Notes: generated from the letters alone by a model not told the origin. A DNA stretch of 64,000 bases from an uncultured Smithella sp. (GCA_964394185.1 CAYMWM010000001.1:2233-66232); one strand, 5' to 3'; shown: positions 10,152-36,120, counted from the stretch's first letter. Translations and numbers: made by a program.

Positions 10152-11250
10152 ATTTAATATCAGGTGCCGACGATGGTTCATACTCCACTCTATCCCTGCC
10201 GTTTGCCTTGGCCCGGTATAGCGCTGTGTCAGCTCTGTTGATCGCCTGTTGAATAATTTCGCTTTGCTTAAATTCCGTCACACCGACGGATATTGTCATT
10301 CTGAAATCATCCGGCATGTTTTGATACTCGATTTTCCTGATCAATTTTCTCATTCTTTCAGCGCAAAGAACCGCCTGATCTTTTTCGACGTTGGTCAGGA
10401 TAAGAATAAATTCCTCGCCGCCATATCTCGCAATGTGATCGATGTTGCGGAGGTTTTTCTGGGTTTCCTGAGCTATTGTTTTGAGTACAATGTCGCCTGC
10501 GGAATGACCGTACGTATCATTGACCTGTTTGAAATGATCCAGGTCAAATATGCAAATGGAAAAGGGATGAACCCCTCTGTCCACGAGAGCTTTCTGATGT
10601 TCCAGAATTTTATACATCTGGCGCCGATTGAATACCTGTGTCAGGTCATCAATGATGGCAAGCTTTTCAATGGTTGCCAGAGCGTAGGATATCTGCGCTC
10701 TGAGCCTGGTAATGTATCCTCCTACCAGAGAGAACCAGGGAAGCACCATCGCCAGGATGACGATGTTCAGTATGTCCACCTTACTTACTAAATTCGGATC
10801 AATTTTATAAAGCAGAAGAATAACAAGGGAGTAATTGACAATCGCAAACGCCGACAGAAAAAGAAACTGCCAGACATTTAATCGGAAAAGTCCGAAAATA
10901 AAAACAACCAGATAGGTTAACAGGACAAGGCTTCTCATGGCGTCGGCGTAAAACGCTATAACCATAACCCAGAATGTGGCCATAATCATTTGTAGCAGAG
11001 TCATACTGGGATCTTTAAGCTTCTTGTTAAAACCGCTTCTGATTAGAGCATATATAAGACCATTGCATAAGATAATGCCGATAGAACTCACAACAAGCGT
11101 ATTGACGGTTCCTCTTGACATTTGTCCCTGGGAATAAAACAGGATGCAGATAGATAACCACATCATATAAGAACCCAATGCCATAAAAAAGCGTTTAAGC
11201 CTTAATGCTTGATTGGGATCATCTTTAGGAAATATACTGAACATGGGCAT
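10150..11250 (-). CDS. Membrane-anchored diguanylate cyclase (GGDEF)
   Basis: Five to six N-terminal TM helices, then a GGDEF domain with RYGGEEF. Confidence 0.85.
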   Translation of the reverse strand: MPMFSIFPKDDPNQALRLKRFFMALGSYMMWLSICILFYSQGQMSRGTVNTLVVSSIGIILCNGLIYALIRSGFNKKLKDPSMTLLQMIMATFWVMVIAFYADAMRSLVLLTYLVVFIFGLFRLNVWQFLFLSAFAIVNYSLVILLLYKIDPNLVSKVDILNIVILAMVLPWFSLVGGYITRLRAQISYALATIEKLAIIDDLTQVFNRRQMYKILEHQKALVDRGVHPFSICIFDLDHFKQVNDTYGHSAGDIVLKTIAQETQKNLRNIDHIARYGGEEFILILTNVEKDQAVLCAERMRKLIRKIEYQNMPDDFRMTISVGVTEFKQSEIIQQAINRADTALYRAKANGRDRVEYEPSSAPDIK

Positions 11251-21670: not shown

Positions 21671-22165
21671 ATTATCCTCTTACATCGAGCCCGTTCATTG
21701 CCCGTCTGATTCGTTTTTTGCGGAAAAAATCAAACTTCCCGGCGCAGTTCCTTGTCCCGAAATGACGCGAGGGGTTTTTTATTTCCACTCCCCTTGCAAG
21801 CTACATTAAGGCCTGACCGCCTGTCAATGATTATGATGGCCTATGATTGTAAGTTCGGCCAGCTCAGCCAAGTCTTTTCGACTTGGCTGAAAATAATAAA
21901 ATTATGGTGAATTGCTGAAAAGTCGAGGCCAAAAGACTCGACCAAATTTGGGTTCAAGTTTGAACAAAAATATTTCGGGGCAAGTAGCAAACCTGCTCCA
22001 TCACCGACGGCAACTTCCTGTAAGTCTTATTTTTCAAATATCTGATTTTATGCTAGGTTACAACCTGCAATCGTTAAACAATTATTTTTCATTAAAAATA
22101 CAATAAATTAATTTGCGGTGTTTGTTATATTAACATATCTGTATAAATAATGTTCGGTAAAAAAA

Positions 22166-22753
22166 ATGACCAAACGTATATCGAAGTTAATTATTGATGT
22201 AGAATCCGGGAACGCTGGCGATGCTATTGAGGCGGCAAAAAAAATATCTTTCAATACTATTTCTAAAGACGAAATTGAAAAATTAGCAAGTGTTGCTAAT
22301 AATGGAAAAGAATTGCATAGCAGAGAAGCGGCGACTTATGCACTTTCCAATATTAATAACATTGATGAATCGCTATTAGTGTTGATTGATCTCTTGGATT
22401 CGTCAATAAACCATGAGTCTGTCCGCGGTCGCGCTGCTGAAGGTATTGCTAACATAAAATTTTCTCGAAAAAAGAATATAAAAAAGAAAGCTGAATATAT
22501 TCTAATTAAATGTCTACAAGACCCTTCTCCAACGGTAAGGTTCTGGTCATGTTTTGCGGTTGGCGTATTGAGATTTAAAAAAGCTCTCCCCATATTGAAG
22601 GAAATAAAAAGTAATGATCATGAAATATGTCCTGGTTGGTGGTATGTTTCAGAAGAAGCTGAGGATGCAATTAAATCAATAAATGGCAGGCATGGAAAGA
22701 ATCGGATTTCAGTAAATCAAAGAAGTAGTAGTATTCCATATTTATTAGAATAA
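22166..22753 (+). CDS. HEAT-repeat protein
   Basis: Repeated ...R..AA.AL/GI... helical-pair pattern (HSREAATYAL, SVRGRAAEGI, TVRFWSCFAV). AT-rich gene. Confidence 0.55.
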   Translation: MTKRISKLIIDVESGNAGDAIEAAKKISFNTISKDEIEKLASVANNGKELHSREAATYALSNINNIDESLLVLIDLLDSSINHESVRGRAAEGIANIKFSRKKNIKKKAEYILIKCLQDPSPTVRFWSCFAVGVLRFKKALPILKEIKSNDHEICPGWWYVSEEAEDAIKSINGRHGKNRISVNQRSSSIPYLLE

Positions 22754-22944
22754 GGACAATAAAGCGGACGGTTGTATTTAAAGATGAAGAAAGGAAGAAA
22801 AACGAAATTAAATAGAACCATCCCCTTTTCTCTTATTTGATTTTTAAGCAATTTATTCTTTCCATTTTTATTTAGATAAAGTAACATTACGTAGAAAATC
22901 GGGAAAAATCAACCAAGTATATTAATTGTTCGTTGGTGAATATT

Positions 22945-23388
22945 ATGTGTTTCGTACTTTATGTAGGAACTGAAAAATCATTAATACGCAAAAAGTGGGA
23001 TAAAGATGCTCCAGATTTGTGCATCGAAAGCCTTACTGAAAATGAAAGTATTATCAAAACCCACTTTACAAAGCAGGAAATTCAATATGTGGGTTCCACT
23101 TCGGGTTGTGGATGTGATTTTCCTCACGTAATACTACAAAATGGTGAAAGGCCAGTTTTTGAAGACCTAGAAGAAGATCAAGAACGAAAGACTAACAATC
23201 GTTATAACCGAGAAAAGCTCATGGTTCTGTTAAAAAGTACTGGAGAAGAGTTTGTTGAGATTTATGGAATTTGGGATGGCGACTACGACAAAGAACCAAA
23301 AGCAAAAGAATCAATCCAACTCACTGAGATTCTTGACAACAATTTCTTTTTCAAAGAACAAGGTTTTTATGTAATGAAAATATTGTAA
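22945..23388 (+). CDS. Hypothetical protein
   Basis: ATG 22945 (MCFVLYVG...). GSTSGCGCDFPH motif, no family recognised. AT-rich. Confidence 0.45.
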   Translation: MCFVLYVGTEKSLIRKKWDKDAPDLCIESLTENESIIKTHFTKQEIQYVGSTSGCGCDFPHVILQNGERPVFEDLEEDQERKTNNRYNREKLMVLLKSTGEEFVEIYGIWDGDYDKEPKAKESIQLTEILDNNFFFKEQGFYVMKIL

Positions 23389-23458
23389 AAGCGAACAAAA
23401 ACATCTAGCCGATCGCTACGCTCCGGCTGATTTTTACTTTCGCCAAATGTAGGAAAGT

Positions 23459-23860
23459 ATGAAGTGCAGGATATCCATCACTATGGAAACAGACTTAGCT
23501 GCCTGGGTGTCTCGGGAAGAATTCATGGCCACTGTTGATAAGGCCGACCTATTATGTCGCAAAGCTCAAGTTGTCTGCGACTGGTATCATCCCGATTGGT
23601 TCTGGAGCGACGATAAAGGTGAGCTATTCTTCATTCCACCGGCATTCGGGTTTTGGGGCGGACGTTTACGCGGCATTAATGGTCGTCATAGAGCAATACT
23701 TCTATTTAGACATTTGGAAGCCATACCAATGCTTTTGGTACAACCGGGCATGTGGCCGAAGCAAATTCTTGCTAAAATCGTACTGCGAGAAATCAGAGAA
23801 AATGAAATTGTGGAGCTTCCGAATATCCCTGTAAATACGGATATAAAAAGGGCCGAGTGA
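23459..23860 (+). CDS. Hypothetical protein, possibly ParB/Srx-like fold
   Basis: INGRHRAILL resembles the GxxRxxA box of ParB/sulfiredoxin-like domains. Weak. Confidence 0.4.
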   Translation: MKCRISITMETDLAAWVSREEFMATVDKADLLCRKAQVVCDWYHPDWFWSDDKGELFFIPPAFGFWGGRLRGINGRHRAILLFRHLEAIPMLLVQPGMWPKQILAKIVLREIRENEIVELPNIPVNTDIKRAE

Positions 23861-23962
23861 GCAAGACGTTCCACCTTTCAAATGGTAATCCTCCAATTCT
23901 TTCAACTGACAAGACAGAGCCTTTGTAGATTATCAATAAAGGACACAATCCACGGCAAGGAT

Positions 23963-24457
23963 CTATTTCAGAAACTTATTTTCAATCAAATCGGCGATGC
24001 CGGATATGTCATTGATATCGAAGCAGGGAACGCCGGCATCCAGTTTTACATCGGCGGCCAGCGCCAGCAGGTTATCCTCCTTGCCGCATAATAATTCCCT
24101 TTTCAATTCAGAACGGTAAACTTCAATTTTGGGGAACGGATTTCCCTTATAACCTTCGGCAAGAATGACATCCGCGTTCTTGATATATTTGTCTCTTATC
24201 TCCCCCAAGGAATGATCATAGTCAAGGTCTTCAATCAGTGCGACGCGTGTAGGGCAGGCAATGACTGTCGCGACAGCGCCCGCTTGCTTATGCCGCCAGC
24301 TGTCCTTCCCTTCGTGGTCTATATCGAAGCCGTGCTTATTGTGCTTGATGGTGGCAACTCGGTATCCCCTTTTCATCAGTTCGGGAATCAGTTTTTCCAC
24401 CAGCGTTGTCTTGCCGGAATTGGATTTGCCGACTATGGATATGATTGGAATAGTCAT
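23963..24457 (-). CDS. mobB: Molybdopterin-guanine dinucleotide biosynthesis adapter protein MobB
   Basis: IVGKSNSGKTTLVEKLI P-loop, ...VATIKH, 164 aa. Confidence 0.85.
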   Translation of the reverse strand: MTIPIISIVGKSNSGKTTLVEKLIPELMKRGYRVATIKHNKHGFDIDHEGKDSWRHKQAGAVATVIACPTRVALIEDLDYDHSLGEIRDKYIKNADVILAEGYKGNPFPKIEVYRSELKRELLCGKEDNLLALAADVKLDAGVPCFDINDISGIADLIENKFLK

Positions 24458-24469
24458 ATTTTATAAGAA

Positions 24470-25261
24470 TTAACGCATTGCCCGGTTGACCACGTCCTGA
24501 TCGAAATAATTGCAGGACATTCCCGCATCCACCACGATTCCCGTGGCATTGATGCCGCTGGAAACGGGCGAAAGCAGGAATACCACCGTGTTGGCAACCT
24601 CTTCGGTTTTAAGCGCCGCCTTCCGCAGCGTCAATTGTTCGGCAAAAAGATAATTGTTAACGTAGCCCGGAATGCCCGCCGAAGCCGATGTTTTCAAGGG
24701 GCCGGCGCAAACGGCATTGACCCTGACTTTGGATATTTCCGATAAAGATTTTGCCAGAAATGCCACGGTCGCATCCAGTGCGGCCTTGATGGGTCCCATG
24801 TACCCGTAAGCCGTCGCGCGGGTGCTGCTGATGGATATGGTGACGATGGATGCGTTTTCTTCAAAAGAATTTTTCAGGGCGTTTGCGAGGGTGACCAGCG
24901 ACAAGCAGGATATGTTTGTCGCCTGAAGAAAATCCTTTACATTGGTTTCAAGAAAGGGTTTGAGGCCTTCGCTGTAATTGGCAAAAGCAATGGAATGGAC
25001 AAAGCCCGCAAGCTTGATGTTGTTATTCAGGAAGTACTCTCCGAGTTGGCGGATGCTTTCGGGATTTTCCACATCACACATCAAAACGGTGCTCTCGGGA
25101 AAAAGCTTTTGCGCTCTGTCCCGATTATCCTCGTTTTGCACGGAAAATACAACGCGCGCCCCGTTATCCATCAGTCCTCTGGCGACAAAGTACGCGACGC
25201 TCTTTTTGTTGGCAACACCGGTGACGAAAAATGTTTTACCCGAAACCTGCAGAAAGTCCAT
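24470..25261 (-). CDS. fabI: Enoyl-ACP reductase (FabI type)
   Basis: Aligns by eye to E. coli FabI: FVTGVANKKSVAY, GFVHSIAFA, YGYMGPIKAALD (Tyr/Lys), NAVCAGPLKT. Confidence 0.85.
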   Translation of the reverse strand: MDFLQVSGKTFFVTGVANKKSVAYFVARGLMDNGARVVFSVQNEDNRDRAQKLFPESTVLMCDVENPESIRQLGEYFLNNNIKLAGFVHSIAFANYSEGLKPFLETNVKDFLQATNISCLSLVTLANALKNSFEENASIVTISISSTRATAYGYMGPIKAALDATVAFLAKSLSEISKVRVNAVCAGPLKTSASAGIPGYVNNYLFAEQLTLRKAALKTEEVANTVVFLLSPVSSGINATGIVVDAGMSCNYFDQDVVNRAMR

Positions 25262-25273
25262 ATCAGCCTCTCA

Positions 25274-25687
25274 CTATTGGTGCGGGAGCAGCGCCCCCTG
25301 AAATATAATTTTTAAAATCAGTTTGTCGCCAATCCTGATGGTTCCGCTCATATAAAAAGCGTTATCAAGCTTGTCATCGAGCGTTACCGTAATGGTCAGC
25401 GTATCACCGGGTCTGGCGAAATTTTTAAACTTGGCATCTTTTATCCGGGCCACGACCCCCAATCCCGGCTGTTTTTCGCCTCCCATTAAAATCGCGCCCG
25501 TCTGGAAGCAGGCCTCGCACAATAAAACACCGGGCATAATGGGATTGCCGGGGAAATGTCCCTGAAAAAAATATTCGTCATCCCGGAGGGTTCTTTGCGT
25601 CGTAATTGTATTGCCTTCACGGCTGATAATCTTATCAACAAAAAGAAACGGCGGGCGCTGAGGGATAGCGGCAAGAACTTCGTCCAT
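25274..25687 (-). CDS. fabZ: 3-hydroxyacyl-ACP dehydratase (FabZ/FabA hotdog)
   Basis: PPFLFVDKI...FFQGHFPGNPIMPGVLLCEA. Confidence 0.8.
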   Translation of the reverse strand: MDEVLAAIPQRPPFLFVDKIISREGNTITTQRTLRDDEYFFQGHFPGNPIMPGVLLCEACFQTGAILMGGEKQPGLGVVARIKDAKFKNFARPGDTLTITVTLDDKLDNAFYMSGTIRIGDKLILKIIFQGALLPHQ

Positions 25688-26427
25688 TATAGCCCTCCCG
25701 CCACCGTGATGGTTGTTCCGTTGATATAGGAAGCCTCGCGGGTCGCCAGAAAGAGAACCGCATGGGCTATTTCTTCCACCTTGCCGAAACGCTTCTGCGG
25801 AATCATCCTGAGATATTCTTTTTTTTGTTCATCGGGAAGGTCGCTGATTAATTCGGTATCGATAAAACCGGGAGAGACGCAGTTGACGGTAATGCCTTTT
25901 TTAGCCACTTCTTTCGATAGTGATTTGGTCAAAGCCACCTGACCGGCCTTGGATGCCGCGTAATTTGCCTGTCCCTGAAAGCCCATATCGCCTCCCAGCG
26001 AGCTGATGTTGATAATCCGCCCGAAACGATTGGACATAAAACGGGTAATGATTTCCCGCGACATGTAAAAAGTTCCCGAAAGATTGACATCCAGAACCTT
26101 TTGCCATTGCTCATCGGACATCATCGCCGTAAGCCCGTCCTGCCTGATGCCGGAATTGTTAACCAGCACTTCCAGCGAGGGGTATTTTTCGTCCAGATAT
26201 TTAAATAAATCCTTCACCGCCTGCGAAGAAGAGACATCATATTTCTGAATATCCAGCCTTGGCGCGTATTGTTCATTTTTATTTTTAAAATCATTGGCGG
26301 CGGCATCATTGGATGAATAGGTGGCAATGACCGTCGCGCCCGCCTTGAGAAAGGCCGTGACAATTCCCGCTCCAATGCCCCTCGTGCCGCCGGTGACAAT
26401 AACCCTCTGTCCGCTGAAATCAAACAT
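25687..26427 (-). CDS. fabG: 3-oxoacyl-ACP reductase
   Basis: TGGTRGIGAGI, NISS, YAASKAG SDR motifs. Its stop overlaps the fabZ start. Confidence 0.85.
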   Translation of the reverse strand: MFDFSGQRVIVTGGTRGIGAGIVTAFLKAGATVIATYSSNDAAANDFKNKNEQYAPRLDIQKYDVSSSQAVKDLFKYLDEKYPSLEVLVNNSGIRQDGLTAMMSDEQWQKVLDVNLSGTFYMSREIITRFMSNRFGRIINISSLGGDMGFQGQANYAASKAGQVALTKSLSKEVAKKGITVNCVSPGFIDTELISDLPDEQKKEYLRMIPQKRFGKVEEIAHAVLFLATREASYINGTTITVAGGL

Positions 26428-26436
26428 ATAAACTCC

Positions 26437-27858
26437 TCAGTTTAATTTATCCAAATAGCTATCCACTTCATACGACTGAATCACGCCGTAATTGGCGGCG
26501 CCCAGCCATCCCGACATAATAATGCCGACCGAACCCGTATGAAACAGGCCTTTGATTTCCTTATCCAGTCCCATGGAAATTGCCAGTCCCTCGTGCTTGG
26601 TCCCGAAGGACGAACCCTTCTCGTGATGCGTATATCGTTTGATGGTCACCGGTGTTGCCGCTTCAATATAATCAATTTTTTTGCCGATGCCGGGAATCAC
26701 TTTTTCCAGACTGACCAGCGTTGCCTCAATGAGTTCCTTTTTCTTTGCCTTGTAGTCTTCCTTGCTCAGATTAACCCAGTCTTCGTAACGCGCGTTGGTG
26801 GAAGCGACGATGGTGTACCCGGCATCTGCCAGTTGGGGACGAAGCCTGGGGTAGTAGAGGGAAAACGTCCGGCTGGTCGTTTTCATGGAAAGAAGCTCAT
26901 CTGTCCTGAATTCATCTGCTTCCGAATAAAAAATGAGATCGCCGATGTCTTCGACAACTTCCCCCTGCCTGATGCCCATATAAACCTGACAGGAACTGGT
27001 GTTGAGTCGTACCTTCCTGACCTTTTCCATAAACTGAGGCGTGAATTTGTCTTCGCCGACCAGATTGAAAATAGTGCCGATGAGATTGCCGTTGGAAAGA
27101 ACCGATTTGGAAGAAATAAAATCTCCGCCTACCTCAACCCCCTTGCAGACGTTATTCTCGACGACAATTTTATCCACTTTGGACTTGAGACGGATATCAA
27201 CATTATTGCGCAGAAGCTCTTCCTCCATCATCTGAATCACCAGATCCGTGCCGCCTTGAAAAGTAAAAACCCCTTTGCTCATAAAATTGGAAAAAACGAT
27301 GCCGTAGGTAATGGCCGGGTCTTCAAGCGTCGAACCATTGGCGTAGACAATCGGTTCAATCAGGAAACGATGGACATCTTTTCTGCCGGGGAAAAAACTC
27401 TCCAAAAGTTCCCCGTTGGTCATCTCCTTGTTGTCGTAGTAATTCATGTTCATGATGAGCTTGAAAAAATTATCAACCTGCTCGGGTGCAACTTTAAAAT
27501 CATTGATGAGCTTGCTGGTGAAATTCTCCACGGTGAAATCGCTTTCTATCGAATACATGGGATTGATAAAACGAACCCTTTTGAGTTGAACGATTTTATT
27601 GGCGATTTCCCTGCTCCAGTATTTTTTACAGGTTTTGACCATGCCCACGGGAAATCCATGCAGCGATACATCGAAAATGTGTTTTCCTTTCCGGTGAAAC
27701 CAGGTCGCGAATCCGCCCAGTTTGTCATGGGCTTCGAGCAATAAAATCTTGCGTCCGCCTTTTGCCATCTTATTGGCGGCGGTCAATCCTCCCAGTCCTC
27801 CGCCGATAATAATGACGTCATAATTTTGTGTAATTTTATCTTTATTGTTCAAAAGCAT
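26437..27858 (-). CDS. Phytoene-desaturase-family FAD-dependent oxidoreductase (copy 2)
   Basis: YDVIIIGGGLGGLTAANKMAKGGRKILLLEAHDKLGG dinucleotide fold. CrtI/amine-oxidase-like length (473 aa). Confidence 0.8.
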   Translation of the reverse strand: MLLNNKDKITQNYDVIIIGGGLGGLTAANKMAKGGRKILLLEAHDKLGGFATWFHRKGKHIFDVSLHGFPVGMVKTCKKYWSREIANKIVQLKRVRFINPMYSIESDFTVENFTSKLINDFKVAPEQVDNFFKLIMNMNYYDNKEMTNGELLESFFPGRKDVHRFLIEPIVYANGSTLEDPAITYGIVFSNFMSKGVFTFQGGTDLVIQMMEEELLRNNVDIRLKSKVDKIVVENNVCKGVEVGGDFISSKSVLSNGNLIGTIFNLVGEDKFTPQFMEKVRKVRLNTSSCQVYMGIRQGEVVEDIGDLIFYSEADEFRTDELLSMKTTSRTFSLYYPRLRPQLADAGYTIVASTNARYEDWVNLSKEDYKAKKKELIEATLVSLEKVIPGIGKKIDYIEAATPVTIKRYTHHEKGSSFGTKHEGLAISMGLDKEIKGLFHTGSVGIIMSGWLGAANYGVIQSYEVDSYLDKLN

Positions 27859-27920
27859 TGATTACCTCGCTGAAAGATTACGCACCTTTTCTGTATATTT
27901 TAGCCTTTTGTTGAAAAAAT

Positions 27921-27972
27921 AACAGGAATGTGAAAATGGCGGTGCCTAAATATGGCACCGGCGTTTCCTGTT
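27921..27972 (-). terminator. Intra-operon hairpin followed by a T-run (possible terminator/attenuator)
   Basis: On the minus strand: AACAGGAA...GGTGCC-N7-GGCACC...TTCCTGTT, then ATTTTTT. Nested in a longer inverted repeat (27908-28005). This is the only large gap in the 8-gene operon. Confidence 0.35.
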
Positions 27973-28116
27973 GGATAATTTTAACATATAGCAACTTTTC
28001 AACAATAATCCAATACTAAAAGTAATGGCTCAAATTTTTTAAAGGTTGTTTGAGGTAGATTGGGGCGGGTAAGAATGGTTAATAAAATCGCAAAGAACTT
28101 ATTGGCAGTGCCGAGC

Positions 28117-29148
28117 CTACCATTCGACTCCCAGCATGATTGAATTGAGGCCGGAACCGATGCCCAGTAAACCTACCTTGCTCCCTTTGGGAATCTTCTT
28201 TTGCTCATCAAAAATATTTAACGTAATCGGCAGGGCGGATGCTCCGGTATTGCCCAGATATTGATACGTGATAAAGGTTGGACAATTGTCGAGCTTCAAT
28301 ATTTGTCTTAAAAGCGCTTCGTGCGCCACTCCGACCTGATGGCCGACAAAATAATCAACATCATCATTGGTCCACTTCAGCACCCGTTTTGTTTCTTCCC
28401 ATGTTTTCTCGGCCAGAGCAATGCCGGATTTCATCAGCTCTTCGGAATCGGTTTCCATCATTAATGATGATGTATCACCGCCGCCGCGGCAAAGAACATT
28501 GGCCGATGAATCAACCATTGAGGCTCCTCCCAGCAGCAAATGACCTTCCGGAACACAGTTTTTGTGCGATATCGTATAAGCAACCGCAGCAGCGCCAATC
28601 GTTAAATTCGCGATATATTTTTTAATGCTTTTTCTGGTGATGCTATGATCATTTAACAGATGTTCCATGGTTTGCAGCAGGAGCGGCCCGCCGTTTTCAC
28701 CGGAAACAATAAGAGCGTGTTTGATTAAACCCTGCTCAATCATATTGGCGGCAACCACAAAGGAACTCATCATGCCCAGACAGGCGTTGGACAAATCAAA
28801 GAACATGGTATGTTCCCGCAGTCCCAGATTATAATGAACAATCGAGGAAGTTGATGGTTCCAGATAATCGCGGCACACAGATGCGTGGATGATCAAGTCA
28901 ATATCCTCCGGTTTCACGACATTTTTTGCAAAAAGATTTTTAGCGGCTTGAGTGGACAGATCGCTGGGCATTGTTCCGGGAGGCCAGTAACGCCTTTCTT
29001 TAATTCCCGTCATCATTTCAATCCTGCCGGCGGGAAGTTTAAGGCGTTCATAAACCGGCGCGAGCCTTTCTTCGATTTCAGTCGAAGTCATTATGGTTTC
29101 AGGAATATGATAGGCAAATGACGAAATAACAACATTTTTGAATTTCAT
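28117..29148 (-). CDS. fabH: 3-oxoacyl-ACP synthase III (FabH-like)
   Basis: Start moved to ATG 29148 (MKFKNVV), in an ATGA overlap with the upstream stop. Cys-His-Asn triad contexts SNACLG, VGHQVG, LGNTGASA. Confidence 0.8.
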   Translation of the reverse strand: MKFKNVVISSFAYHIPETIMTSTEIEERLAPVYERLKLPAGRIEMMTGIKERRYWPPGTMPSDLSTQAAKNLFAKNVVKPEDIDLIIHASVCRDYLEPSTSSIVHYNLGLREHTMFFDLSNACLGMMSSFVVAANMIEQGLIKHALIVSGENGGPLLLQTMEHLLNDHSITRKSIKKYIANLTIGAAAVAYTISHKNCVPEGHLLLGGASMVDSSANVLCRGGGDTSSLMMETDSEELMKSGIALAEKTWEETKRVLKWTNDDVDYFVGHQVGVAHEALLRQILKLDNCPTFITYQYLGNTGASALPITLNIFDEQKKIPKGSKVGLLGIGSGLNSIMLGVEW

Positions 29149-30530
29149 GATTTTTCTCCATCCATCAGGCAATGCAGATTGGCCATTGAAATACCGCTGA
29201 GCATGGCGCCGACTATTCCCAGGAATCCCTGATCGGTACCGCAGATAAAAAGATTTTTTATGCCGGTTCTGCCGTCCCGGGACTTTTGCGTGGTTCCATA
29301 AACCGCTCCCTGAAAATGACCGGTATAGCGGGTGATGGTCTTGGGAGTAAAAACATCATGATAAAGAAGGTTGGCCTGAAAGTTTGGGAACATTTTGGCT
29401 ATTAACTTCATCGCTTCATCACAGACCTCTTTTTTTCTCGAGAGATATGTTTTTCTGTCCAGTTCATTCCATTTTTCAAAATTGGCAATAAACGTGACGC
29501 GAATTAATCCTTCCTCATAGTCGTCATAACCGAAATTGTTCGGGAAGCAAATCACGGCGCTTTGGTAATCACACAGCGTCTGCGGTTTTTGATAATGATA
29601 TTTTTCATTTTCATTGGAAAATACAATGGTTTCTTGAATGCCGAATTCGCAGGGCTTCTTGTCAAAGAATAAAATGGTTTCCGTAAAGCTCATATTGCCG
29701 ATGGCGGGAGATTCCTGCCCCTCGGTAACAATGTTCATCGTTTCCGGCAGACCGATGGAGGACATGACTTTGTTGGCCACAAGTTTTTCACCAGAATCCA
29801 ATGTGACGCCTTTCACAACACCATTTTCCACATCTATTTTTTTGATACCGGTTCCCAGGCGCAGTTCGCCGCCCAGTTGGGTATATCTTTCGAGAAGTAA
29901 ATCGATGACCAGACGAACCCCGTTTTTGGGGCGGCTGAAACCTTCCAGATAAATGCTTTTAAACATGATGACAAACTGGGAAAAATCCATGTCGTTTTCC
30001 CAGGCGCTTCCGTAAATCAGCAGGGGGCAGAAAAGCATTTCCAGCAATTTTTCGTCGGTAATAATTTCGCGGACCCTTTCTTTCGCGCTCTGAGGCTTAT
30101 TGTTCAGATTAACCTCATCGAAGTTTTTGACGAGTTCAAGAAGTCTTGCAAAATTATCCTGCTGGCCCGGAAAGGCTCTGGCTATCTCTCCGGTGAGTAA
30201 TTGCGGATTATTGGAAAAAGAAAGATTGCATCCGGGAAATGCTACACATGAGAAATTCTGCTGGGACAAATCCAGTTTTTCGTACGGTATTCTTAATTGC
30301 TTGAGCAGTTTTGTTAAGGGGCGGCCTCTTTCACCCTTTTGGGCAAAATTGGTCATGGCATGCAAACCTACATCCAGCCTTCTGCCCTGCCGTTCATAAT
30401 AGGAATTAAGACCGCCGGGTACTTTATGCCGCTCCAGAATACACACCTTGTGATCGTACATGGCCAGTCTGATGCCTGCCGCCAGACCGGACATGCCCGC
30501 GCCTATGATCAGCGTATCATAATTCGTCAT
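29145..30530 (-). CDS. Phytoene-desaturase-family FAD-dependent oxidoreductase (copy 1)
   Basis: YDTLIIGAGMSGLAAGIRLAMYDHKVCILERHKVPGG, 461 aa. Confidence 0.8.
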   Translation of the reverse strand: MTNYDTLIIGAGMSGLAAGIRLAMYDHKVCILERHKVPGGLNSYYERQGRRLDVGLHAMTNFAQKGERGRPLTKLLKQLRIPYEKLDLSQQNFSCVAFPGCNLSFSNNPQLLTGEIARAFPGQQDNFARLLELVKNFDEVNLNNKPQSAKERVREIITDEKLLEMLFCPLLIYGSAWENDMDFSQFVIMFKSIYLEGFSRPKNGVRLVIDLLLERYTQLGGELRLGTGIKKIDVENGVVKGVTLDSGEKLVANKVMSSIGLPETMNIVTEGQESPAIGNMSFTETILFFDKKPCEFGIQETIVFSNENEKYHYQKPQTLCDYQSAVICFPNNFGYDDYEEGLIRVTFIANFEKWNELDRKTYLSRKKEVCDEAMKLIAKMFPNFQANLLYHDVFTPKTITRYTGHFQGAVYGTTQKSRDGRTGIKNLFICGTDQGFLGIVGAMLSGISMANLHCLMDGEKS

Positions 30531-30793
30531 TATGCGGCTAATGCGAACTTGGGTCCCAGATACTCAATGCAACTTTTCAATGTCGCGAGTTTTATGTAAT
30601 CTTCTGTGGGCACTTCGATTTTATAACGCTTCTTGAGTTCCATCACCACATCCAGAAAATCCATGGAATCCAAATCAAGCTGTTCTCTTAATCTTACATT
30701 GTCATCAAGATTGGTAAGATTCTCGGGATCTTCATCAACGGCTATGTCGGCGATGATTTCAATGATTTTCTTTCTTAAGGTCTGGTAGTCCAT
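30530..30793 (-). CDS. Acyl carrier protein (divergent, not AcpP-like)
   Basis: 87 aa, LDLDSMDFLDVVMEL phosphopantetheine-Ser context. Its stop overlaps the next start. Confidence 0.8.
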   Translation of the reverse strand: MDYQTLRKKIIEIIADIAVDEDPENLTNLDDNVRLREQLDLDSMDFLDVVMELKKRYKIEVPTEDYIKLATLKSCIEYLGPKFALAA

Positions 30794-30814
30794 AATGCCT
30801 CCTGATAAAAAATT

Positions 30815-32056
30815 TTATTTGTTATATTTTTTTATAATTAAAACCGAATTGATTCCCAGCATCCCGAAGGAGTTGCTTAAAATATATTTAACGTCCTTCT
30901 CGACGGGATTACCATTTACGAGATTCTTTAAACTGCACCGGGGATCGACATTTTCAATAAGCTTGCACGAATGAATTTTGTTATCGGTAAAACTGGGTAT
31001 ATTTCCTGCCAGTTCCAGTGCACCGGCGGCGCCCATCGCGTGTCCGATAAATCCCTTGGTGCAATTGATGTAGGTGTTTTCGGATTGTCCGAAGACAGCC
31101 CGAACCGCTTCACATTCATTGATGTCTCCGGATACTGTTCCGGTGGCATGAAGGTTAACGATGTCAATATCATCGGCCTTAAGGTCCGCCTTGGCCATTG
31201 CCGTTTGCATGCATTCAATCTGTCTTTGCGTATCGGGAAGAACAAAATCAACAGCATCGGAATTAACATGATAACCGGCTATTTCGCTGTAAATTTTTGC
31301 TCCTCTTTTCTGGGCATCTTCCAGCCTTTCCAGAACAAAAATCGCTCCACCCTCCGATACAACAATACCATTGCGGTTCACATCCAGCGGGCGGCTGGCA
31401 AGTGTGGGATCTTCATGAGTACCCAGGGCACCCTGACTCTTGAAGCCTGCAAAGATTCCGAAAGTGCCTGTGCTTTCGGAAACGCCTCCCGCCAGAGCCA
31501 GATCAACTTCATCCAGTTGCAGCATTTGCATTCCATGAATAATACCGATATTGCCAGCAGCGCAGGCGGCGCCGATCGTATAGGCAGGACCTGTGATTCC
31601 CAAATTAAGACTGACTTCGCCGGCAGGAGCATTGGCAACCGTTCTGGGATTATGATGATGAGACCATAAGCCGGCATCAAGGTTGTTCGCATGAAGTTCA
31701 TATATTTCGTTTTCCGTTTCCACATTACCGTGCTCGGTGATTCCGAGATAGATGCCCGTTCTGTTTTTAACCAAAGACTCTATGGAGAGGTCGCTGTCGA
31801 GCAGCGCTTCACTTGCGCAATAAATAGAAATTGAACCCGCCCGGGTTCCACGTTTGCGCATTTTTTTCTTTTGATGAAGTGTTTCATCAAAATTACAGTT
31901 TCCTGCTGCCACTTTGCCCATATAGCGTACTTCCATTTCGGTAATTCCGGATTTTTGCGTAAGCAGGGCGCCGCGAAAATCTGTTAGATTATTTCCGTTA
32001 GGAGCCGTAAGCCCGACACCGGTGATAACAATTCTGACATTTTGTTTAAGACCCAT
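30815..32056 (-). CDS. fabF: 3-oxoacyl-ACP synthase II (FabF-like)
   Basis: Active-site contexts GAACAAG, NLHATGT, GHAMGAAG. 413 aa. Confidence 0.85.
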   Translation of the reverse strand: MGLKQNVRIVITGVGLTAPNGNNLTDFRGALLTQKSGITEMEVRYMGKVAAGNCNFDETLHQKKKMRKRGTRAGSISIYCASEALLDSDLSIESLVKNRTGIYLGITEHGNVETENEIYELHANNLDAGLWSHHHNPRTVANAPAGEVSLNLGITGPAYTIGAACAAGNIGIIHGMQMLQLDEVDLALAGGVSESTGTFGIFAGFKSQGALGTHEDPTLASRPLDVNRNGIVVSEGGAIFVLERLEDAQKRGAKIYSEIAGYHVNSDAVDFVLPDTQRQIECMQTAMAKADLKADDIDIVNLHATGTVSGDINECEAVRAVFGQSENTYINCTKGFIGHAMGAAGALELAGNIPSFTDNKIHSCKLIENVDPRCSLKNLVNGNPVEKDVKYILSNSFGMLGINSVLIIKKYNK

Positions 32057-32331
32057 TAATATTTCCTAAATATTTTTAAAAATAATAATTACATACTGGT
32101 ATCTGCCGCGGCAGTTTCAGTATTATACATCACAAGACAAAATGATGAGGGATTTCTCGTGTCACATACAGAGATAAAAATCATTCTTTTCCCCCTTTTC
32201 GCTAAAAGGGGAAAACTATTCTTTTAACTCTCCTCGCCCTCACAACAAAAAACTTGAGACATTTCGTGCTTAGATATTATCCCTATATGTAAACATATGT
32301 CAACAAAAAAATTGAGGGAAAGCTCACTTTT

Positions 32332-32826
32332 TTAAGTTTTTGTTTTCTTTAATATTTCAATCATTATTTTGGCGCAGGCGAGGGTGTCGGAAAGGGCGTC
32401 ATGGTGCCGCAAATCAATGTTAAAGTTCCTGCAAACGGCGGGCAGGTTGGTAGGGTAAAGTCCAAAAACTTTCCGGGACAGTTTCATTGTGCATCGAAAA
32501 TCAACGTCCGGCCTAGCAAGACTGTGTCTTGCACAGCAGGCGCTCAGAACATTTCTATCAAAACCGGCGTTATGAGCAACCGCGAAATCAATATCTTCGA
32601 AAAAAGGTGTTATCGATGACCAGTACTGTTCAAAAGTCGGCTTGTCCTCCACATCCTCAAAGGTGATTCCGTGTATATATGTAAATACAAAATGTTTATA
32701 GGGAGGCCGGATAAGAAATAAAGCTTGTTCGATAATTCTATTGTTCTCAACACGCGCCAGACCGAGGGCGCAGGCGCTGTCCGGGTAATAATTGGCTGTT
32801 TCAAAATCGAGTGCAAGGAAATTCAT
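32332..32826 (-). CDS. DnaQ-like 3'-5' exonuclease
   Basis: LALDFETAN ExoI motif, AHNAGFD, HHDALSD. ATG 32826 preferred over TTG 32838. Confidence 0.75.
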   Translation of the reverse strand: MNFLALDFETANYYPDSACALGLARVENNRIIEQALFLIRPPYKHFVFTYIHGITFEDVEDKPTFEQYWSSITPFFEDIDFAVAHNAGFDRNVLSACCARHSLARPDVDFRCTMKLSRKVFGLYPTNLPAVCRNFNIDLRHHDALSDTLACAKIMIEILKKTKT

Positions 32827-32856
32827 AATAAAATTCAATGATAAAATTCTTGATTA

Positions 32857-32892
32857 TGTAAAAGAGGGGGCAGTTTTTCAACTTACCCCCTC
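32857..32892 (-). terminator. Intrinsic terminator after the FKBP gene
   Basis: Minus strand reads GAGGGGG-N15-CCCCCTC followed by TTTTAC. Confidence 0.5.
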
Positions 32893-32925
32893 CGTACGAT
32901 TTTTGTTTAACAAAATCTGCACAAA

Positions 32926-33639
32926 CTATTTCTTTGGTTTCGTCTTTGTTTGTTTCTTTGTCACTGGAGGTGCAGGTGCCTTCTGAACGTCTAATAGTTC
33001 CACCTCAAAAATCAGTGTTGCCCCGCCGGGAATAATGGGCGCTCTGCCCTGATCGCCGTAAGCGATTTCTGAAGGACAAATCAACTTGGCTTTTCCGCCG
33101 ACTTTCATTTTTGCAACACCTTCTGTCCAACAGGGAATAACCTGTCCCAAAGGGAATTCAATGGGCTGGCCGCGCTTTACGGAACTATCGAATTCCTTGC
33201 CATCAATCAACGTGCCGGTATAGTGGACTTTGACTGTATCCGAGGCTGTTGGTTGAGCACCGTTTCCAATGGTAATGGGCTGATAAATAAGACCTGAAGC
33301 TGTCTGTTCGGCCTCCTTTTCCGTGGCAGCTTTTTCCAGGAACGGTTTGGCTAATTCTTTTTGCTTTTGTGCAGCGGCCTTTGCTCTTTCCTGAGCGAGA
33401 GTATTGATGTTTTTGCCGTAATCTTCAGGTTCGACCGCCAATTTTTTACCGGCTGCAGCGTCGTTGATACCCATCTTGACATAGTCGTATTCGTCCTCAG
33501 TCAGGTCAAAAACGGACAGTTGTTTCGTTATGATAACACCCAGCGCATATAGCGTTTTTTGATCTTCAGTTTTCGGCTTGGCAGCCCATGCCGGAACAGC
33601 CAATAATATAATTACGATACAAATGATAACCTTACGCAT
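32926..33639 (-). CDS. Periplasmic FKBP-type peptidyl-prolyl isomerase (FkpA-like)
   Basis: ATG 33639 with GAAAGGAG upstream. Signal peptide, then VHYTGTLIDGKEFDSS...GGATLIFEVELL FKBP motifs. Lys-rich tail. Confidence 0.8.
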   Translation of the reverse strand: MRKVIICIVIILLAVPAWAAKPKTEDQKTLYALGVIITKQLSVFDLTEDEYDYVKMGINDAAAGKKLAVEPEDYGKNINTLAQERAKAAAQKQKELAKPFLEKAATEKEAEQTASGLIYQPITIGNGAQPTASDTVKVHYTGTLIDGKEFDSSVKRGQPIEFPLGQVIPCWTEGVAKMKVGGKAKLICPSEIAYGDQGRAPIIPGGATLIFEVELLDVQKAPAPPVTKKQTKTKPKK

Positions 33640-33826
33640 AGAACTCCTTTCTGAAAACAAAATATTTTTTATAAAATGTTATTTGAAATGTTGCTAAATA
33701 TAAAAGCTTTAATCTTATATGTCAATGAAATATTGTGACCAAAATCATTTTAATTTTTTGATAAAAAAACCCTTCATAATTATGGCTTCAAAGGGGAGCT
33801 TCCTCCTTAATATTTTTTAAAAACCG

Positions 33827-34351
33827 TCATTTAGCCTTATTAAATTTCGCAAAAATCCAGAATGGCACGGCAACAGGATTAAGACTCTTGTATTGTTGTT
33901 TTAGGGAGATGTAATCTTCAATTTTTTTAATTGCTTCTCTGGGGGTGTCGACGAATTCCACGCCGGCTTCATAAGAATCATCTTCCGTAATGATTTTAAT
34001 CCATTTAACTTTTCCCAGCGCAGTTATTTTTTGATGGAGACTTTCCAATGTCAAGTTTATATTAACCAGGGTATCAACGGGCAAAAGAACATTGCCCTGA
34101 ATTTTAGTTCCCGAAGTGGAAATGTCCCTGCTGTGTTCGCTGATATTTTTCATCTTCGGAATATTTTTTTTATTGGAGACGATTGTTATTGTGACTTCGT
34201 GTTCTTCCTTCAGCCTTTGGGACTTTCTTTTTTCACCGGTTTTGTTTTGCTCGGTATTTTTTTCTTCGCTTCCTTTCGTTTGTTTGACTTTTCCCTTGGT
34301 ATTCATAACGATCCATTCCTCCTTTTTGTTATCAGAATGTCCGTTTTTCAC
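33827..34351 (-). CDS. PilZ-domain (c-di-GMP binding) protein
   Basis: RKSQRLK (RxxxR) and DISTSGTKIQG (D/NxSxxG) motifs. Confidence 0.65.
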   Translation of the reverse strand: MKNGHSDNKKEEWIVMNTKGKVKQTKGSEEKNTEQNKTGEKRKSQRLKEEHEVTITIVSNKKNIPKMKNISEHSRDISTSGTKIQGNVLLPVDTLVNINLTLESLHQKITALGKVKWIKIITEDDSYEAGVEFVDTPREAIKKIEDYISLKQQYKSLNPVAVPFWIFAKFNKAK

Positions 34352-34505
34352 TTGTTAATTTCAAGTACTCCAAACCACACATTAAATTTATAAATATTAT
34401 CTCAACAGATGATGATAAAGACAAGCTGTTTTTATGCAGGATCTTTTTTCAGAAAGAGGAATACAAATATTAAAGACAACAGCAAATCGCTCCCAATCAA
34501 CAGCC

Positions 34506-34691
34506 TCATTTCTTTGCAATCGCAAATGAAATCAAACCGATACCCAAAATGATCAGGGTAATTGGACAGGGCAACGGCAATCCCAGGGGATTGGGCTTAT
34601 TCATAATCATTAGTGTGGAATCCGCTATAAGGAGAAATCCGGATATCGCAAAGCATATTTTTGATATCTTTAACATAAATACCTCTCTCAA
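34506..34691 (-). CDS. Small membrane protein (weak call)
   Basis: 61 aa with two hydrophobic helices. No homology recognised. Confidence 0.3.
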   Translation of the reverse strand: MREVFMLKISKICFAISGFLLIADSTLMIMNKPNPLGLPLPCPITLIILGIGLISFAIAKK

Positions 34692-34799
34692 ATGGATTTT
34701 GCCGCTGAAAATTAATATGTGACAGTATAGAAATATCTGTCCTGTGTGTCAAGGAATACAATTTATTTTGTATCAAGGTGTTTTGCCGACAATATTTAT

Positions 34800-34828
34800 T
34801 TGACTTTTGGCCGGCGCCAATTTAAGTT
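34800..34828 (+). promoter_or_regulatory. Sigma70-like promoter upstream of the KS operon
   Basis: TTGACT, 17 nt spacer, TAAGTT, about 50 nt upstream of the TTG start at 34879. Confidence 0.3.
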
Positions 34829-34878
34829 TCAGTAACTTATAATAAGTGAATGTTGAAATTTAAGTAAGGATTTTTATA

Positions 34879-36120
34879 TTGAAAAAACGTATTGTTATCA
34901 CCGGATTGGGAACTTTGAATTCTATCGCCAACAATGTACCGGATTTTGCGCAAGCACTCAAAAGCGGTACATGCGGCATCGGACCGGTTGACCTTTTTGA
35001 AACTACCGGATTTCGCAGTCAGATTGGAGGACAGATTAAAAACTTTATTGCCCGTGATTATATTCCCCGGAATTTTTCTACCAAAAGAATGTCACGGGCG
35101 GATATGCTTTCCTTTGCCGCAGCGCTGGAAGCGTTGCGTGACACCGGACTTTATCCGCCGCCTGAAGAATTGAAAGAGGATTTTGGTGTGGTCATCGGCG
35201 GCGGCGGCGGTGGACTTCTCGAAGCGGAAGAATTCTACGGGAAATTATTAAAAACAGACCGAAACGCAAAATTTTCCAGACTATCTGCTCTGTTCTGTGC
35301 CTCTTCCGCTGATTGCCTGGCTTCCGCATTCGGTTTTGCAGGACCGAAATCAACTTTTATGACTGCCTGTTCCGGGGGAGCCACCGCATTGGGTTATGCA
35401 AGGGATTTAATTCTTAACGATCAGGCATCCATTGTGCTTACCGGTGGCGTCGAACCCATGTGCCGGACGACGTATGCCGCCTTTAATGCTCTCAAGTCCG
35501 TTGATCCGGAAACCTGCCGTCCCTTTGATAAAAACCGTTCTGGGCTTTCTCTGGGCGAGGCTGCTGCAATCATGGTGTTGGAGGAACTGGAAGTTGCGCA
35601 AAAAAGAGGCGCTAAAATTTATGCTGAAATTCTGGGTTACGGCATTACCTGCGATTCTTATCACATGACCGCTCCCGATGAAAATGCCTCCGGCGCCATC
35701 CGTTCCATGAAGGCGGCGCTCAAAGACAGTGGCCTTTCCATTGGTGACATTGATTATATCAACGCGCACGGTACAGCCACACCGGTCAACGATGCCATGG
35801 AAACCAAAGCCATCAAGGAAGTCTTTGGCAATCGTGCCTACGCAGTTCCAGTCAGTTCTACCAAGTCCATGCATGCGCACACACTGGGCGCCGCAGGGGC
35901 GCTGGAAGGCATAGTCTCTGTACTGGCGCTTCAGCATGGCTTTATACCGCCGACCATTCATTATCAGGAAAGCGACCCGCAATGCGATCTGGATTACGTC
36001 ACTTCCGGTTCCCGAAACGCCTCTCTGCGAGCGGTGCTTTCCAATTCATTTGCCTTTGGGGGCAACAACACCACATTAATATTCGGCAAGTATTCCGGAA
36101 AGGGTGCTGTTAATGTTTGA
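34879..36120 (+). CDS. Beta-ketoacyl synthase (KS-alpha-like, catalytically complete)
   Basis: TTG start with AAGGA upstream. MTACSGGATA (Cys), CDSYHMTAP and NAHGTATP (His/His). Confidence 0.85.
   Translation: MKKRIVITGLGTLNSIANNVPDFAQALKSGTCGIGPVDLFETTGFRSQIGGQIKNFIARDYIPRNFSTKRMSRADMLSFAAALEALRDTGLYPPPEELKEDFGVVIGGGGGGLLEAEEFYGKLLKTDRNAKFSRLSALFCASSADCLASAFGFAGPKSTFMTACSGGATALGYARDLILNDQASIVLTGGVEPMCRTTYAAFNALKSVDPETCRPFDKNRSGLSLGEAAAIMVLEELEVAQKRGAKIYAEILGYGITCDSYHMTAPDENASGAIRSMKAALKDSGLSIGDIDYINAHGTATPVNDAMETKAIKEVFGNRAYAVPVSSTKSMHAHTLGAAGALEGIVSVLALQHGFIPPTIHYQESDPQCDLDYVTSGSRNASLRAVLSNSFAFGGNNTTLIFGKYSGKGAVNV

Follow-up and report, generated by a model that had tools for sequence, protein, structure and literature searches.

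Hydrocarbons of the C31:9 type occur in sulfate reducers and planctomycetes. Pfa is a type I synthase built of several domains, FabA-like dehydratase/isomerase domains among them, and the origin of polyunsaturated chains in bacteria that possess neither Pfa nor oxygen-dependent desaturases is a question dating from at least 2009. According to the available part of a paper from that year (Rattray et al., PMC2649909), gene clusters for type II fatty acid synthases (FASII) that include phytoene-desaturase-like genes are found in Kuenenia, Desulfotalea, Geobacter and Pelobacter. The same text reports that Desulfotalea psychrophila contains C31:8 and C31:9 hydrocarbons, has no pfa/polyketide-type route to polyunsaturated fatty acids (PUFAs) and carries three such flavoproteins, and it proposes a novel anaerobic (oxygen-independent) PUFA pathway for such clusters. 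In the accessible portions of work on Pfa-containing bacteria, 16:4 acyl chains pass from the carrier domains of Pfa to the OleA of Shewanella, and this OleA, without OleBCD, gives rise to a 31:8 ketone (Allemann et al. 2019, PMC6463001); co-occurrence of pfa and ole genes, with C31:9, is described for Geobacter bemidjiensis (Shulse and Allen 2011, PMC3098273; Yoshida et al. 2016, PMC4882568). Phytoene-desaturase-like enzymes were still listed as uncharacterised in the available text of a paper from 2023 (PMC9821293). Here we analyse an operon of eight minus-strand genes at positions 24470-32056 of a stretch of 64,000 nucleotides (nt) from an uncultured Smithella sp. (GCA_964394185.1 CAYMWM010000001.1:2233-66232; 'the window' below means this whole stretch).

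We consider it probable (about 0.7) that this operon is the surviving part of an ole-type cluster for head-to-head hydrocarbon lipids, in which a dedicated type II fatty acid synthase (FAS) and two flavoproteins supply acyl chains on an acyl carrier protein (acyl-ACP) for OleA. An original prediction, made from the DNA sequence alone, had described a dedicated elongation set with its own ACP and a FabH-like enzyme, interleaved with two flavoproteins of the phytoene desaturase family (PDS1 and PDS2) that would desaturate its product. The eight open reading frames (ORFs) are found at exactly the coordinates claimed, and the Pfam/NCBIfam matches agree with each of the eight gene names (E-values from 3e-8 for the ACP to 7e-116), so that the operon, its gene order and its extent all stand. 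In gene order, with lengths in amino acids (aa), the features are as follows.

30815..32056, minus strand: KS, a FabF/FabB-like beta-ketoacyl-ACP synthase, 413 aa, with the N- and C-terminal Pfam ketoacyl-synt domains

30530..30793, minus strand: dedicated ACP, 87 aa, with a DSMD serine motif (PF00550, E 3e-8)

29145..30530, minus strand: PDS1, a flavin adenine dinucleotide (FAD) flavoprotein with a CrtI/CrtD-type fold, 461 aa (PF01593 and PF13450)

28117..29172, minus strand: OleA orthologue (the 'FabH-like' gene), assigned from NF006720, PDB sequence matches and an active-site alignment

27859..28116, minus strand: non-coding gap of 258 nt, read as an oleBCD deletion scar from its similarity to the 3' end of oleD

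26437..27858, minus strand: PDS2, a FAD flavoprotein paralogous to PDS1, with a CrtI/CrtD-type fold, 473 aa (PF01593 and PF13450)

25687..26427, minus strand: FabG-like 3-oxoacyl-ACP reductase, 246 aa (adh_short_C2, E 1e-60)

25274..25687, minus strand: FabZ-like 3-hydroxyacyl-ACP dehydratase, 137 aa (PF07977, E 2e-19)

24470..25261, minus strand: FabI-like enoyl-ACP reductase, 263 aa (adh_short_C2, E 6e-53)

The spacing of the ORFs agrees with the tight packing that had been noted, with a single large gap. KS and ACP are 21 nt apart, ACP and PDS1 overlap by 1 nt, and PDS1 and OleA by 28 nt if the TTG start is used or by a 4-nt ATGA if translation begins at the ATG at 29148, which is likely to be the true start of OleA. 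Then follow the 258 nt between OleA and PDS2, 9 nt between PDS2 and FabG, a 1-nt overlap of FabG with FabZ and 12 nt between FabZ and FabI. The ACP (MDYQTLRKK...LDLDSMDF in translation) is indeed unlike AcpP: it scores 34 bits on TIGR00517 (cut-off 70), compared with 91-105 bits for the canonical AcpP of relatives. None of the eight genes encodes FabD, as had also been observed; one FabD-like gene (252 bits, cut-off 261) lies on another contig, C7. Pfam and NCBIfam likewise reveal no acyltransferase or thioesterase in the operon.

The name 'FabH-like' does not survive. The protein scores 387 bits on NF006720 (cut-off 285) and 112 bits on the FabH model (cut-off 292). Its top 12 matches among PDB sequences, all full length, score 226-218 bits (3ROW, 3S21, 4KU2, 5VXD, 6B2S and kin), the best having an E-value of 6.6e-66 over residues 9-351, and the remaining ketosynthase III-type PDB chains, FabH included, reach at most 79 bits. 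We take 3ROW, 3S21, 4KU2 and 5VXD to be the OleA of Xanthomonas campestris, labelled '3-oxoacyl-[ACP] synthase III' in the PDB. In the alignment, a Glu (in YLEPST), a Cys (NACL), a His (GHQV) and an Asn (GNTG) are paired with OleA residues that, counted along the aligned OleA chain in its 358-residue numbering, are 117, 143, 285 and 315; the OleA active site presumably consists of Cys143, His285 and Asn315 together with the OleA-specific Glu117. Because the PDB scores are so unequal (226 against at most 79 bits), NF006720 is passed and the four catalytic residues are aligned, the protein is identified from its sequence as an OleA orthologue.

Comparison with related genomes indicates what the operon has lost. 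Species-representative genomes were scanned with PDS1, and the eight window proteins were then sought in the best 80 of 97 loci, which we divided into 20 Smithella-type loci and 60 others (mostly Bacteriovoracaceae); no Desulfotalea or Kuenenia record is among these best 80. The closest PDS1 homologues, among the matches listed, belong to Smithella/Syntrophaceae genomes (76-95% identity). Most Smithella loci carry an insert of 3.5-4.5 kb between the homologues of oleA and PDS2. It encodes three proteins, which Pfam assigns to an alpha/beta hydrolase, an AMP-binding enzyme and a 3-beta-HSD/epimerase-type reductase, and to judge by these domains the trio has the composition and order of oleB, oleC and oleD. 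The full cluster thus comprises 11 genes: KS, ACP, flavoprotein 1, oleA, oleB, oleC, oleD, flavoprotein 2, FabG, FabZ and FabI. In the Smithella-type loci oleB directly follows oleA in 15 of 20 cases (15 of the 19 with room); three loci (L032, L043 and L044) are compact like that of the window, one (L041) has nothing recognisable after oleA, and one ends too early. L041, a contig of Smithella sp. SCADC, continues for about 7 kb past position 10350 without detected oleB, oleC, oleD, PDS2, FabG, FabZ or FabI; an ACP was likewise not detected at this locus.

The arrangement extends well beyond the genus. KS orthologues with 62-89% identity occur in two phyla. Among the 60 other loci, KS and ACP precede PDS1 in all 52 with room and oleB directly follows oleA in 53 of 53. 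The gene directly after PDS1 is oleA in 19 of 19 Smithella-type loci and in 52 of the 54 other loci with room (71 of 73 together). Where the order has changed, the genes have still remained together. For example, a Thermodesulfobacteriota genome (L104) has all eleven genes in a different order, and an Opitutaceae genome (L108) has six of them (the two flavoproteins, FabZ, FabI, oleA and oleB) in yet another order up to the end of the contig; in G021, the genome that holds the Halobacteriovorax marinus locus L077, PDS2-FabG-FabZ lies about 8 kb beyond oleD. This co-location, surviving reshuffling across phyla, argues for a single pathway. Since Bacteriovoracaceae genomes commonly carry this gene set too, the cluster is not peculiar to anaerobes. 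The Protein Atlas gave taxon leads, and leads only, to Bdellovibrionota, Verrucomicrobiota and Planctomycetota.

The 258-nt gap is the scar left by deletion of oleBCD, and on this comparative evidence the operon is a natural oleBCD-less variant of the 11-gene ole-type cluster. No orthologue of OleB, OleC or OleD was found elsewhere in the window's genome assembly (G000; 3.63 Mb in 238 contigs, 85.5% complete), where the best tblastn matches are paralogues with 22-33% identity. Bases 21-130 of the gap show 70% identity to the 3' end of oleD in L034 (pairwise E 3e-8), and over 117-135 nt the gap is 68-70% identical to this end of oleD in five full-form loci (L034, L036, L030, L031 and L029). In L044, the corresponding gap of 263 nt still codes for recognisable fragments of OleB (N-terminal) and OleD (C-terminal); shorter pieces persist in L043 and almost nothing in L032. 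Since the remnants in the window, L032, L043 and L044 differ, the boundaries of the scar differ between lineages. The window junction is covered without any difference by contigs of two different studies and is therefore not an assembly artefact. On a quick maximum-likelihood tree of KS, PDS1 and OleA (22 rows, after L041, L046 and L064 were dropped because of incomplete genes) the four compact loci are scattered, and its well-supported branches imply at least three separate losses of oleBCD in the Smithella-like genus. The genome that holds L032 (G002, 96% complete) has OleA and no OleC. The compact loci keep the eight genes intact, with neither frameshifts nor stops, and the pairwise ratio of nonsynonymous to synonymous substitution (dN/dS) is 0.03-0.15 over these genes and 0.06-0.10 for oleA. 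Two OleA copies, with 85% and 84% identity to that of the window, occur on contigs C107 and C146 of genome G012, one of them beside oleC; this could mean that both forms of the cluster coexist there or that the bin is a mixture of two strains.

By hhalign, PDS1 and PDS2 are paralogues of each other (26% identity at a probability of 99.9), and both have a GxGxxG motif at the N-terminus. Their best NCBIfam match is carot_isom (TIGR02730, CrtISO/CrtH), on which PDS1 scores 106 and PDS2 120 bits (cut-off 587); on crtI_fam (TIGR02734, cut-off 238) they score 65 and 80 bits. Both models are thus failed, and sequence relatives in the PDB are remote (at most 38 bits). AF2 models of the two proteins (pLDDT 85.6 for PDS1 and 83.3 for PDS2) gave as top Foldseek match in both cases 4REP, a gamma-carotenoid desaturase, with a TM-score of 0.72 for PDS1 (16% identity) and 0.75 for PDS2. 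The corresponding values are 0.68 and 0.71 for 5MOG (plant PDS) and 0.56 and 0.58 for 4DGK (CrtI); across 4REP, 3KA7 and 5MOG the TM-score is 0.66-0.75, and identity to any of these four structures does not exceed 18%. No phytoene/squalene synthase (PF00494) match was obtained in the 85.5%-complete G000, and the orthologues of the two genes adjoin KS-ACP and ole genes rather than crtB. Because the family cut-offs are failed, no phytoene/squalene synthase is matched and the neighbours are FAS and ole genes, the structure models lead us to place PDS1 and PDS2 in a subfamily of their own among CrtI-fold flavoproteins, with a substrate that is not a carotenoid.

The set as a whole is accessory rather than housekeeping, judging from its distribution and its model scores. 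Among 12 relatives in the genus, OleA is found in eight, OleC in five and FabI in seven, compared with none of eight other genera of the order, and FabI homologues are confined in this sample to cluster-bearing genomes. The whole set is missing from four members of the genus whose genomes are 91-100% complete. None of the FASII equivalog models is passed: AcpP is scored as above, and the remaining values are 288 bits for FabF (TIGR03150, cut-off 494; KS, in which Cys/His/His motifs are visible in the translation, is divergent from the housekeeping enzyme), 278 for FabG (TIGR01830, cut-off 298), 96 for FabZ (cut-off 155; on NF000582 the protein scores 99.8 bits with a cut-off of 113) and 172 for the best FabI model (cut-off 362). 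The operon FabI is the only FabI-like tblastn match in G000, where several FabK-type (NMO) genes are also present and no AcpP or FabH exceeds its cut-off. Canonical AcpP was detected in 19 of 21 related genomes, the exceptions being G000 and a genome that is only 57% complete; in G007, a 100%-complete genome of the same genus, it lies in yceD-rpmF-acpP-fabF-glyA. G000 and G007 also share a second FAS-like set (contig C7:37595-49248, L024, in G000 and contig C20, L111, in G007) with FabD, a carboxylase subunit (PYC_OADA), an acyl-CoA dehydrogenase, FabH, FabG, FabZ, KS and a PlsC-like acyltransferase. The FabH of L024 is split into ORFs of 210 and 120 aa in G000. Taken alone, G000 might be thought to have no other FAS set; comparison with its relatives removes this concern. 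The original proposal of an elongation set that is dedicated rather than housekeeping, and that has an ACP to itself, is therefore borne out: the set is patchy in the genus, relatives have a canonical acpP-fabF elsewhere, and other FAS-like sets exist in the genome. Of the two findings that would have overturned that proposal, neither was made: this is not the only FAS gene set, and the flavoprotein orthologues do not lie next to crtB.

If the operon supplies acyl chains to OleA, it might be expected to alternate with Pfa, the supplier in other bacteria. No PfaA above the TIGR02813 cut-off was detected in G000, G007, G002, G021 or G022, which gave only discrete FabF- or FabD-sized matches. We then used an even draw of 200 genomes from the phylum, each at least 90% complete, with thresholds set for this analysis (an E-value of 1e-50 or better for OleA-like and 1e-100 or better for PfaA-like proteins). 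OleA-like proteins occur in 20 of these genomes, PDS1-like proteins in 11 and PfaA-like proteins in 22 (12 over the curated cut-off). The 20 OleA genomes divide into nine, from four families, with PDS1 only and eleven, from ten families, with PfaA-like proteins only; none has both and none has neither. Identity to the OleA of the window is 43-49% in the PDS1 genomes (84% in G007) and 32-40% in the Pfa genomes, and in four of the latter oleA lies within about 10 kb of pfaA. In Bdellovibrionota (151 genomes), OleA was found in 39 genomes and PDS1 in 31; all 31 also have OleA, mostly adjacent by coordinates, and the only PfaA-like genome is without OleA. The FAS/flavoprotein set and Pfa thus appear, from their occurrence in genomes, to be alternative suppliers of OleA substrates, and the pattern is as expected for this. 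The PDS1-like genes of two genomes of family f22 (G032 and G073) show 49% identity and may represent a further reduced form of the cluster.

We propose that KS, FabG, FabZ and FabI would extend the chain on the dedicated ACP, with malonyl loading by a FabD encoded elsewhere in the genome. The two CrtI-fold flavoproteins would insert or shift double bonds on ACP-bound intermediates, most likely by a flavin-dependent trans-2 to cis isomerisation or an alpha,beta-dehydrogenation during elongation. We favour such reactions because activated or allylic C-H bonds are those on which flavins act and because the closest family with a name is that of an isomerase; it is less likely that a finished saturated chain is desaturated. 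Where the original prediction had the flavoenzymes desaturate the product, isomerisation during elongation is at least as plausible. Isomerase activity is known for some FabZ homologues, and the FabZ-like protein could also supply it. The special acyl-ACP made for OleA would probably be polyunsaturated. OleA would condense two such acyl chains and, in the relatives, OleBCD would convert its product to a long polyolefin such as C31:8 or C31:9. In the window organism, without oleBCD, the pathway would stop at the OleA beta-keto acid, which would decarboxylate to a long-chain ketone; alternatively, the acyl chains could be diverted to other lipids.

A more specific proposal, to which we would give somewhat less than even odds, is that double bonds are formed by PDS1 and PDS2 in a type II, Pfa-independent polyunsaturated acyl-ACP synthase of discrete enzymes. 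As flavin-dependent isomerase/dehydrogenases that need no oxygen, the two would take the part played in Pfa synthases by the FabA-like domains. If this is true, such a synthase, together with OleABCD, would explain the C31:8 and C31:9 hydrocarbons of bacteria that lack pfa, among them Desulfotalea as described in the available text of PMC2649909. Similar products would be predicted in the other phyla that carry the cluster, and the recurrent oleBCD-less form would lead to polyunsaturated long-chain ketones instead of olefins.

Other readings fit parts of these data. That the operon is the housekeeping fatty-acid synthase of the organism might be supposed from its having the only FabI-like gene of an incomplete assembly in which neither AcpP nor FabH passes its cut-off. 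A set missing from four of 12 genus relatives, these four being 91-100% complete, and from all eight other genera of the order, with every component below its equivalog cut-off, does not fit this role; 19 of 21 related genomes have a canonical AcpP, beside fabF in G007, and G000 itself has other FAS-like sets and FabK-type genes. We have rejected this possibility, because of the accessory distribution, the sub-cut-off scores and the separate acpP-fabF of relatives, and attach almost no probability to it. We think it just as improbable that the pathway is a carotenoid/isoprenoid one or an anammox-type ladderane one. Both flavoproteins have the CrtI/CrtD fold and, in the available text of PMC2649909, FASII clusters with such genes were first discussed in connection with ladderanes, but the two proteins fall far below the crtI_fam and CrtISO cut-offs, G000 gave no phytoene/squalene synthase match, there was no match to a hydrazine synthase domain (HZS_alpha), and none of the eight operon genes encodes a radical S-adenosylmethionine (SAM) enzyme. 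With no hydrazine synthase domain and with the best homologues in Smithella/Syntrophaceae, an anammox origin of the DNA was rejected as well.

More weight, although still little, must be given to the view that the dedicated FAS, with its product desaturated by the flavoenzymes, provides PUFAs for membrane lipids and that OleA is irrelevant or vestigial in the compact form. Repeated loss of oleBCD, on at least three occasions and with the FAS and flavoprotein genes left intact, suggests a use of the chains that is independent of OleBCD, G032 and G073 carry PDS1 without detected OleA, and an anaerobic PUFA route is what the available text of PMC2649909 proposes for such clusters. It is difficult to reconcile this with an oleA that is intact in all four compact loci, with dN/dS of 0.07-0.10, with an operon free of acyltransferase and thioesterase genes, with the adjacency of PDS1 and oleA in nearly every locus with room (71 of 73) or with the presence of OleA in 40 of the 42 sampled PDS1-bearing genomes. 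We consider rather more doubtful still the idea that the eight genes are a decaying remnant, useless after the loss of oleBCD and turning into pseudogenes. The last three enzymes of the pathway are indeed gone, and the cluster is patchy in the genus, being absent from four of 12 relatives. However, there are no frameshifts or stops in the eight genes across four independently deleted lineages, and the scar of the window has eroded to 70% nucleotide identity and gives no match as protein, compared with about 80% and low dN in the flanking genes.

Several points weigh against the interpretation as the surviving part of an ole-type cluster that feeds OleA. As G000 is only 85.5% complete, oleBCD could conceivably lie on a missing contig. 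The number of losses is taken from a quick version of the tree, and the dN/dS values are measured along paths that include time before the deletion, with synonymous sites near saturation (pS 0.5-0.7). G032 and G073 (both of family f22), two of the 11 PDS1 genomes of the home phylum, show no OleA at an E-value of 1e-50, and eight of the 39 OleA genomes of Bdellovibrionota have neither PDS1 nor PfaA, so that complementarity is not universal. In addition, related genomes are not independent, the thresholds were our own choice and three of the 11 PfaA-like matches in OleA genomes are under the curated cut-off. In the available text of Javidpour et al. 2016 (PMC4790861), two anammox proteins called related, kuste3336 and kuste3607, showed no CrtI activity, and anammox clusters expressed in E. 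coli gave no ladderanes; their kinship to PDS1 and PDS2 is by description.

On balance, we prefer the reading of the operon as a shortened ole-type cluster. The original prediction was right about a dedicated set and about non-carotenoid flavoproteins, and the context now points to head-to-head hydrocarbon synthesis, not simply to unsaturated fatty acids. Its idea of oxygen-independent polyunsaturation had in general form already been published for FASII clusters with phytoene-desaturase-like genes (PMC2649909, available text). What is added is a compact and testable set of genes (11 in the full form and eight in G000) tied to OleA in two phyla, in which CrtI-fold flavoproteins are candidates for a new double-bond chemistry on acyl-ACP and the natural 'OleA-only' variants serve as ready-made controls. 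This is relevant to the old debate over genes of a similar sort in ladderane clusters of anammox bacteria, and to engineered production of hydrocarbons or ketones.

Two further features adjoin the operon.

23963..24457, minus strand: mobB (PF03205, E 8e-48; TIGR00176 above cut-off)

32276..32303, minus strand: promoter-like site (TTGACA, 16 nt, GATAAT), with the KS start about 220 nt downstream

The first of these lies 12 nt downstream of fabI. It also follows fabI in L032, L031 and L044 and was not seen in the other loci, and it is probably a conserved neighbour in Smithella relatives that is not part of the pathway. At L044:14101-14596 mobB matches in three pieces in different frames and is probably frameshifted. 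The promoter-like site agrees with 11 of 12 consensus positions and is the best-scoring in the region, as a consensus match only. A consensus scan found no terminator on the coding strand of the 258-nt gap, and Rfam gave no match in 23800-34900 at an E-value of 0.1 or better. Among 20 RNA runs, none was listed as containing the region, which speaks neither for nor against expression. Just downstream of mobB, at 22000-24000 of the window, G+C content falls to 0.36 between flanks of 0.44-0.51, with small ORFs to which no function is assigned.

The divergent plus-strand genes at 34879-59939 form a separate, aryl-polyene/flexirubin-like cluster that is not part of the operon. It includes two triads of KS, inactive KS and B12-radical SAM genes, an aromatic amino-acid lyase, a thioesterase and an MMPL-methyltransferase fusion, as well as an AMP-ligase, an acyltransferase and an ABC transporter. 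Elsewhere in G000, a second ACP with 59% identity to that of the operon is encoded at C22:8612-12939 (L027), near a NAD_binding_4/epimerase-type reductase of 401 aa and a 629-aa protein without a Pfam match; this locus may be another outlet for the same acyl chains. A third amine-oxidase-type flavoprotein is found beside a KS at C8:35016-43617 (L025), together with a LolA-like protein, FabG, an acyltransferase, a nitroreductase and an AMP-ligase. Finally, C147:1-5275 (L026) contains KS and radical SAM genes, two of each, together with an ACP and an ApeI-like dehydratase, and is similar to the FASII loci with radical SAM genes that have been discussed for Kuenenia and Desulfotalea.

Our literature search, whose coverage mostly excluded subscription journals, found no paper joining ole genes with phytoene-desaturase-like or amine-oxidase genes. 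The operon is of known kinds, being both an ole cluster and a FASII cluster that includes phytoene-desaturase-like genes, but as far as we have found this form of it has not been described as such. It resembles the FASII clusters of Kuenenia stuttgartiensis and D. psychrophila, as described in the available text of PMC2649909, in that FAS genes are interleaved with amine-oxidase/phytoene-desaturase-like genes; in D. psychrophila two such genes (DP2405 and DP2406) are adjacent, as in L104 and L108. Radical SAM genes are discussed for those clusters and there are none in the operon. The likeness is one of description, and the portion of the paper examined contains no mention of ole genes. With respect to anammox ladderane clusters there is a similar difference, since the B12-radical SAM genes near the operon belong to the divergent plus-strand cluster outside it.

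With the housekeeping type II FAS (plsX-fabH-fabD-fabG-acpP-fabF) the operon has in common its classes of enzyme (ketosynthase, ACP, ketoreductase, dehydratase and enoyl reductase), but it contains neither FabD nor a true FabH and is accessory in the genus. PDS1 and PDS2 share the three-domain FAD fold and the N-terminal GxGxxG with CrtI, CrtD, plant PDS and CRTISO; they differ in an identity of at most 18%, in scores far under the family cut-offs and in having no carotenoid context. The pfa-ole tandem clusters (as in Shewanella, and in G. bemidjiensis with pfaDABC-oleABCD-pfaE) are similar in that a dedicated chain builder with its own ACP is linked to OleA, and the two systems alternate among the OleA-bearing genomes of the phylum sample. 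They differ in that the window set, for which no PfaA was found, consists of discrete type II enzymes and two CrtI-fold flavoproteins. A further close parallel is the OleABCD pathway of Xanthomonas and Shewanella (structures include 3ROW and 4KU2). OleA is matched over its full length, including the four active-site residues, and in the relatives genes of the hydrolase, AMP-ligase and 3-beta-HSD types come after oleA, as in ole clusters; in the window operon oleB, oleC and oleD are deleted. To our knowledge, classical ole clusters are without a private FAS with two flavoproteins, and it is in just such a set that the ole genes of this lineage are embedded.

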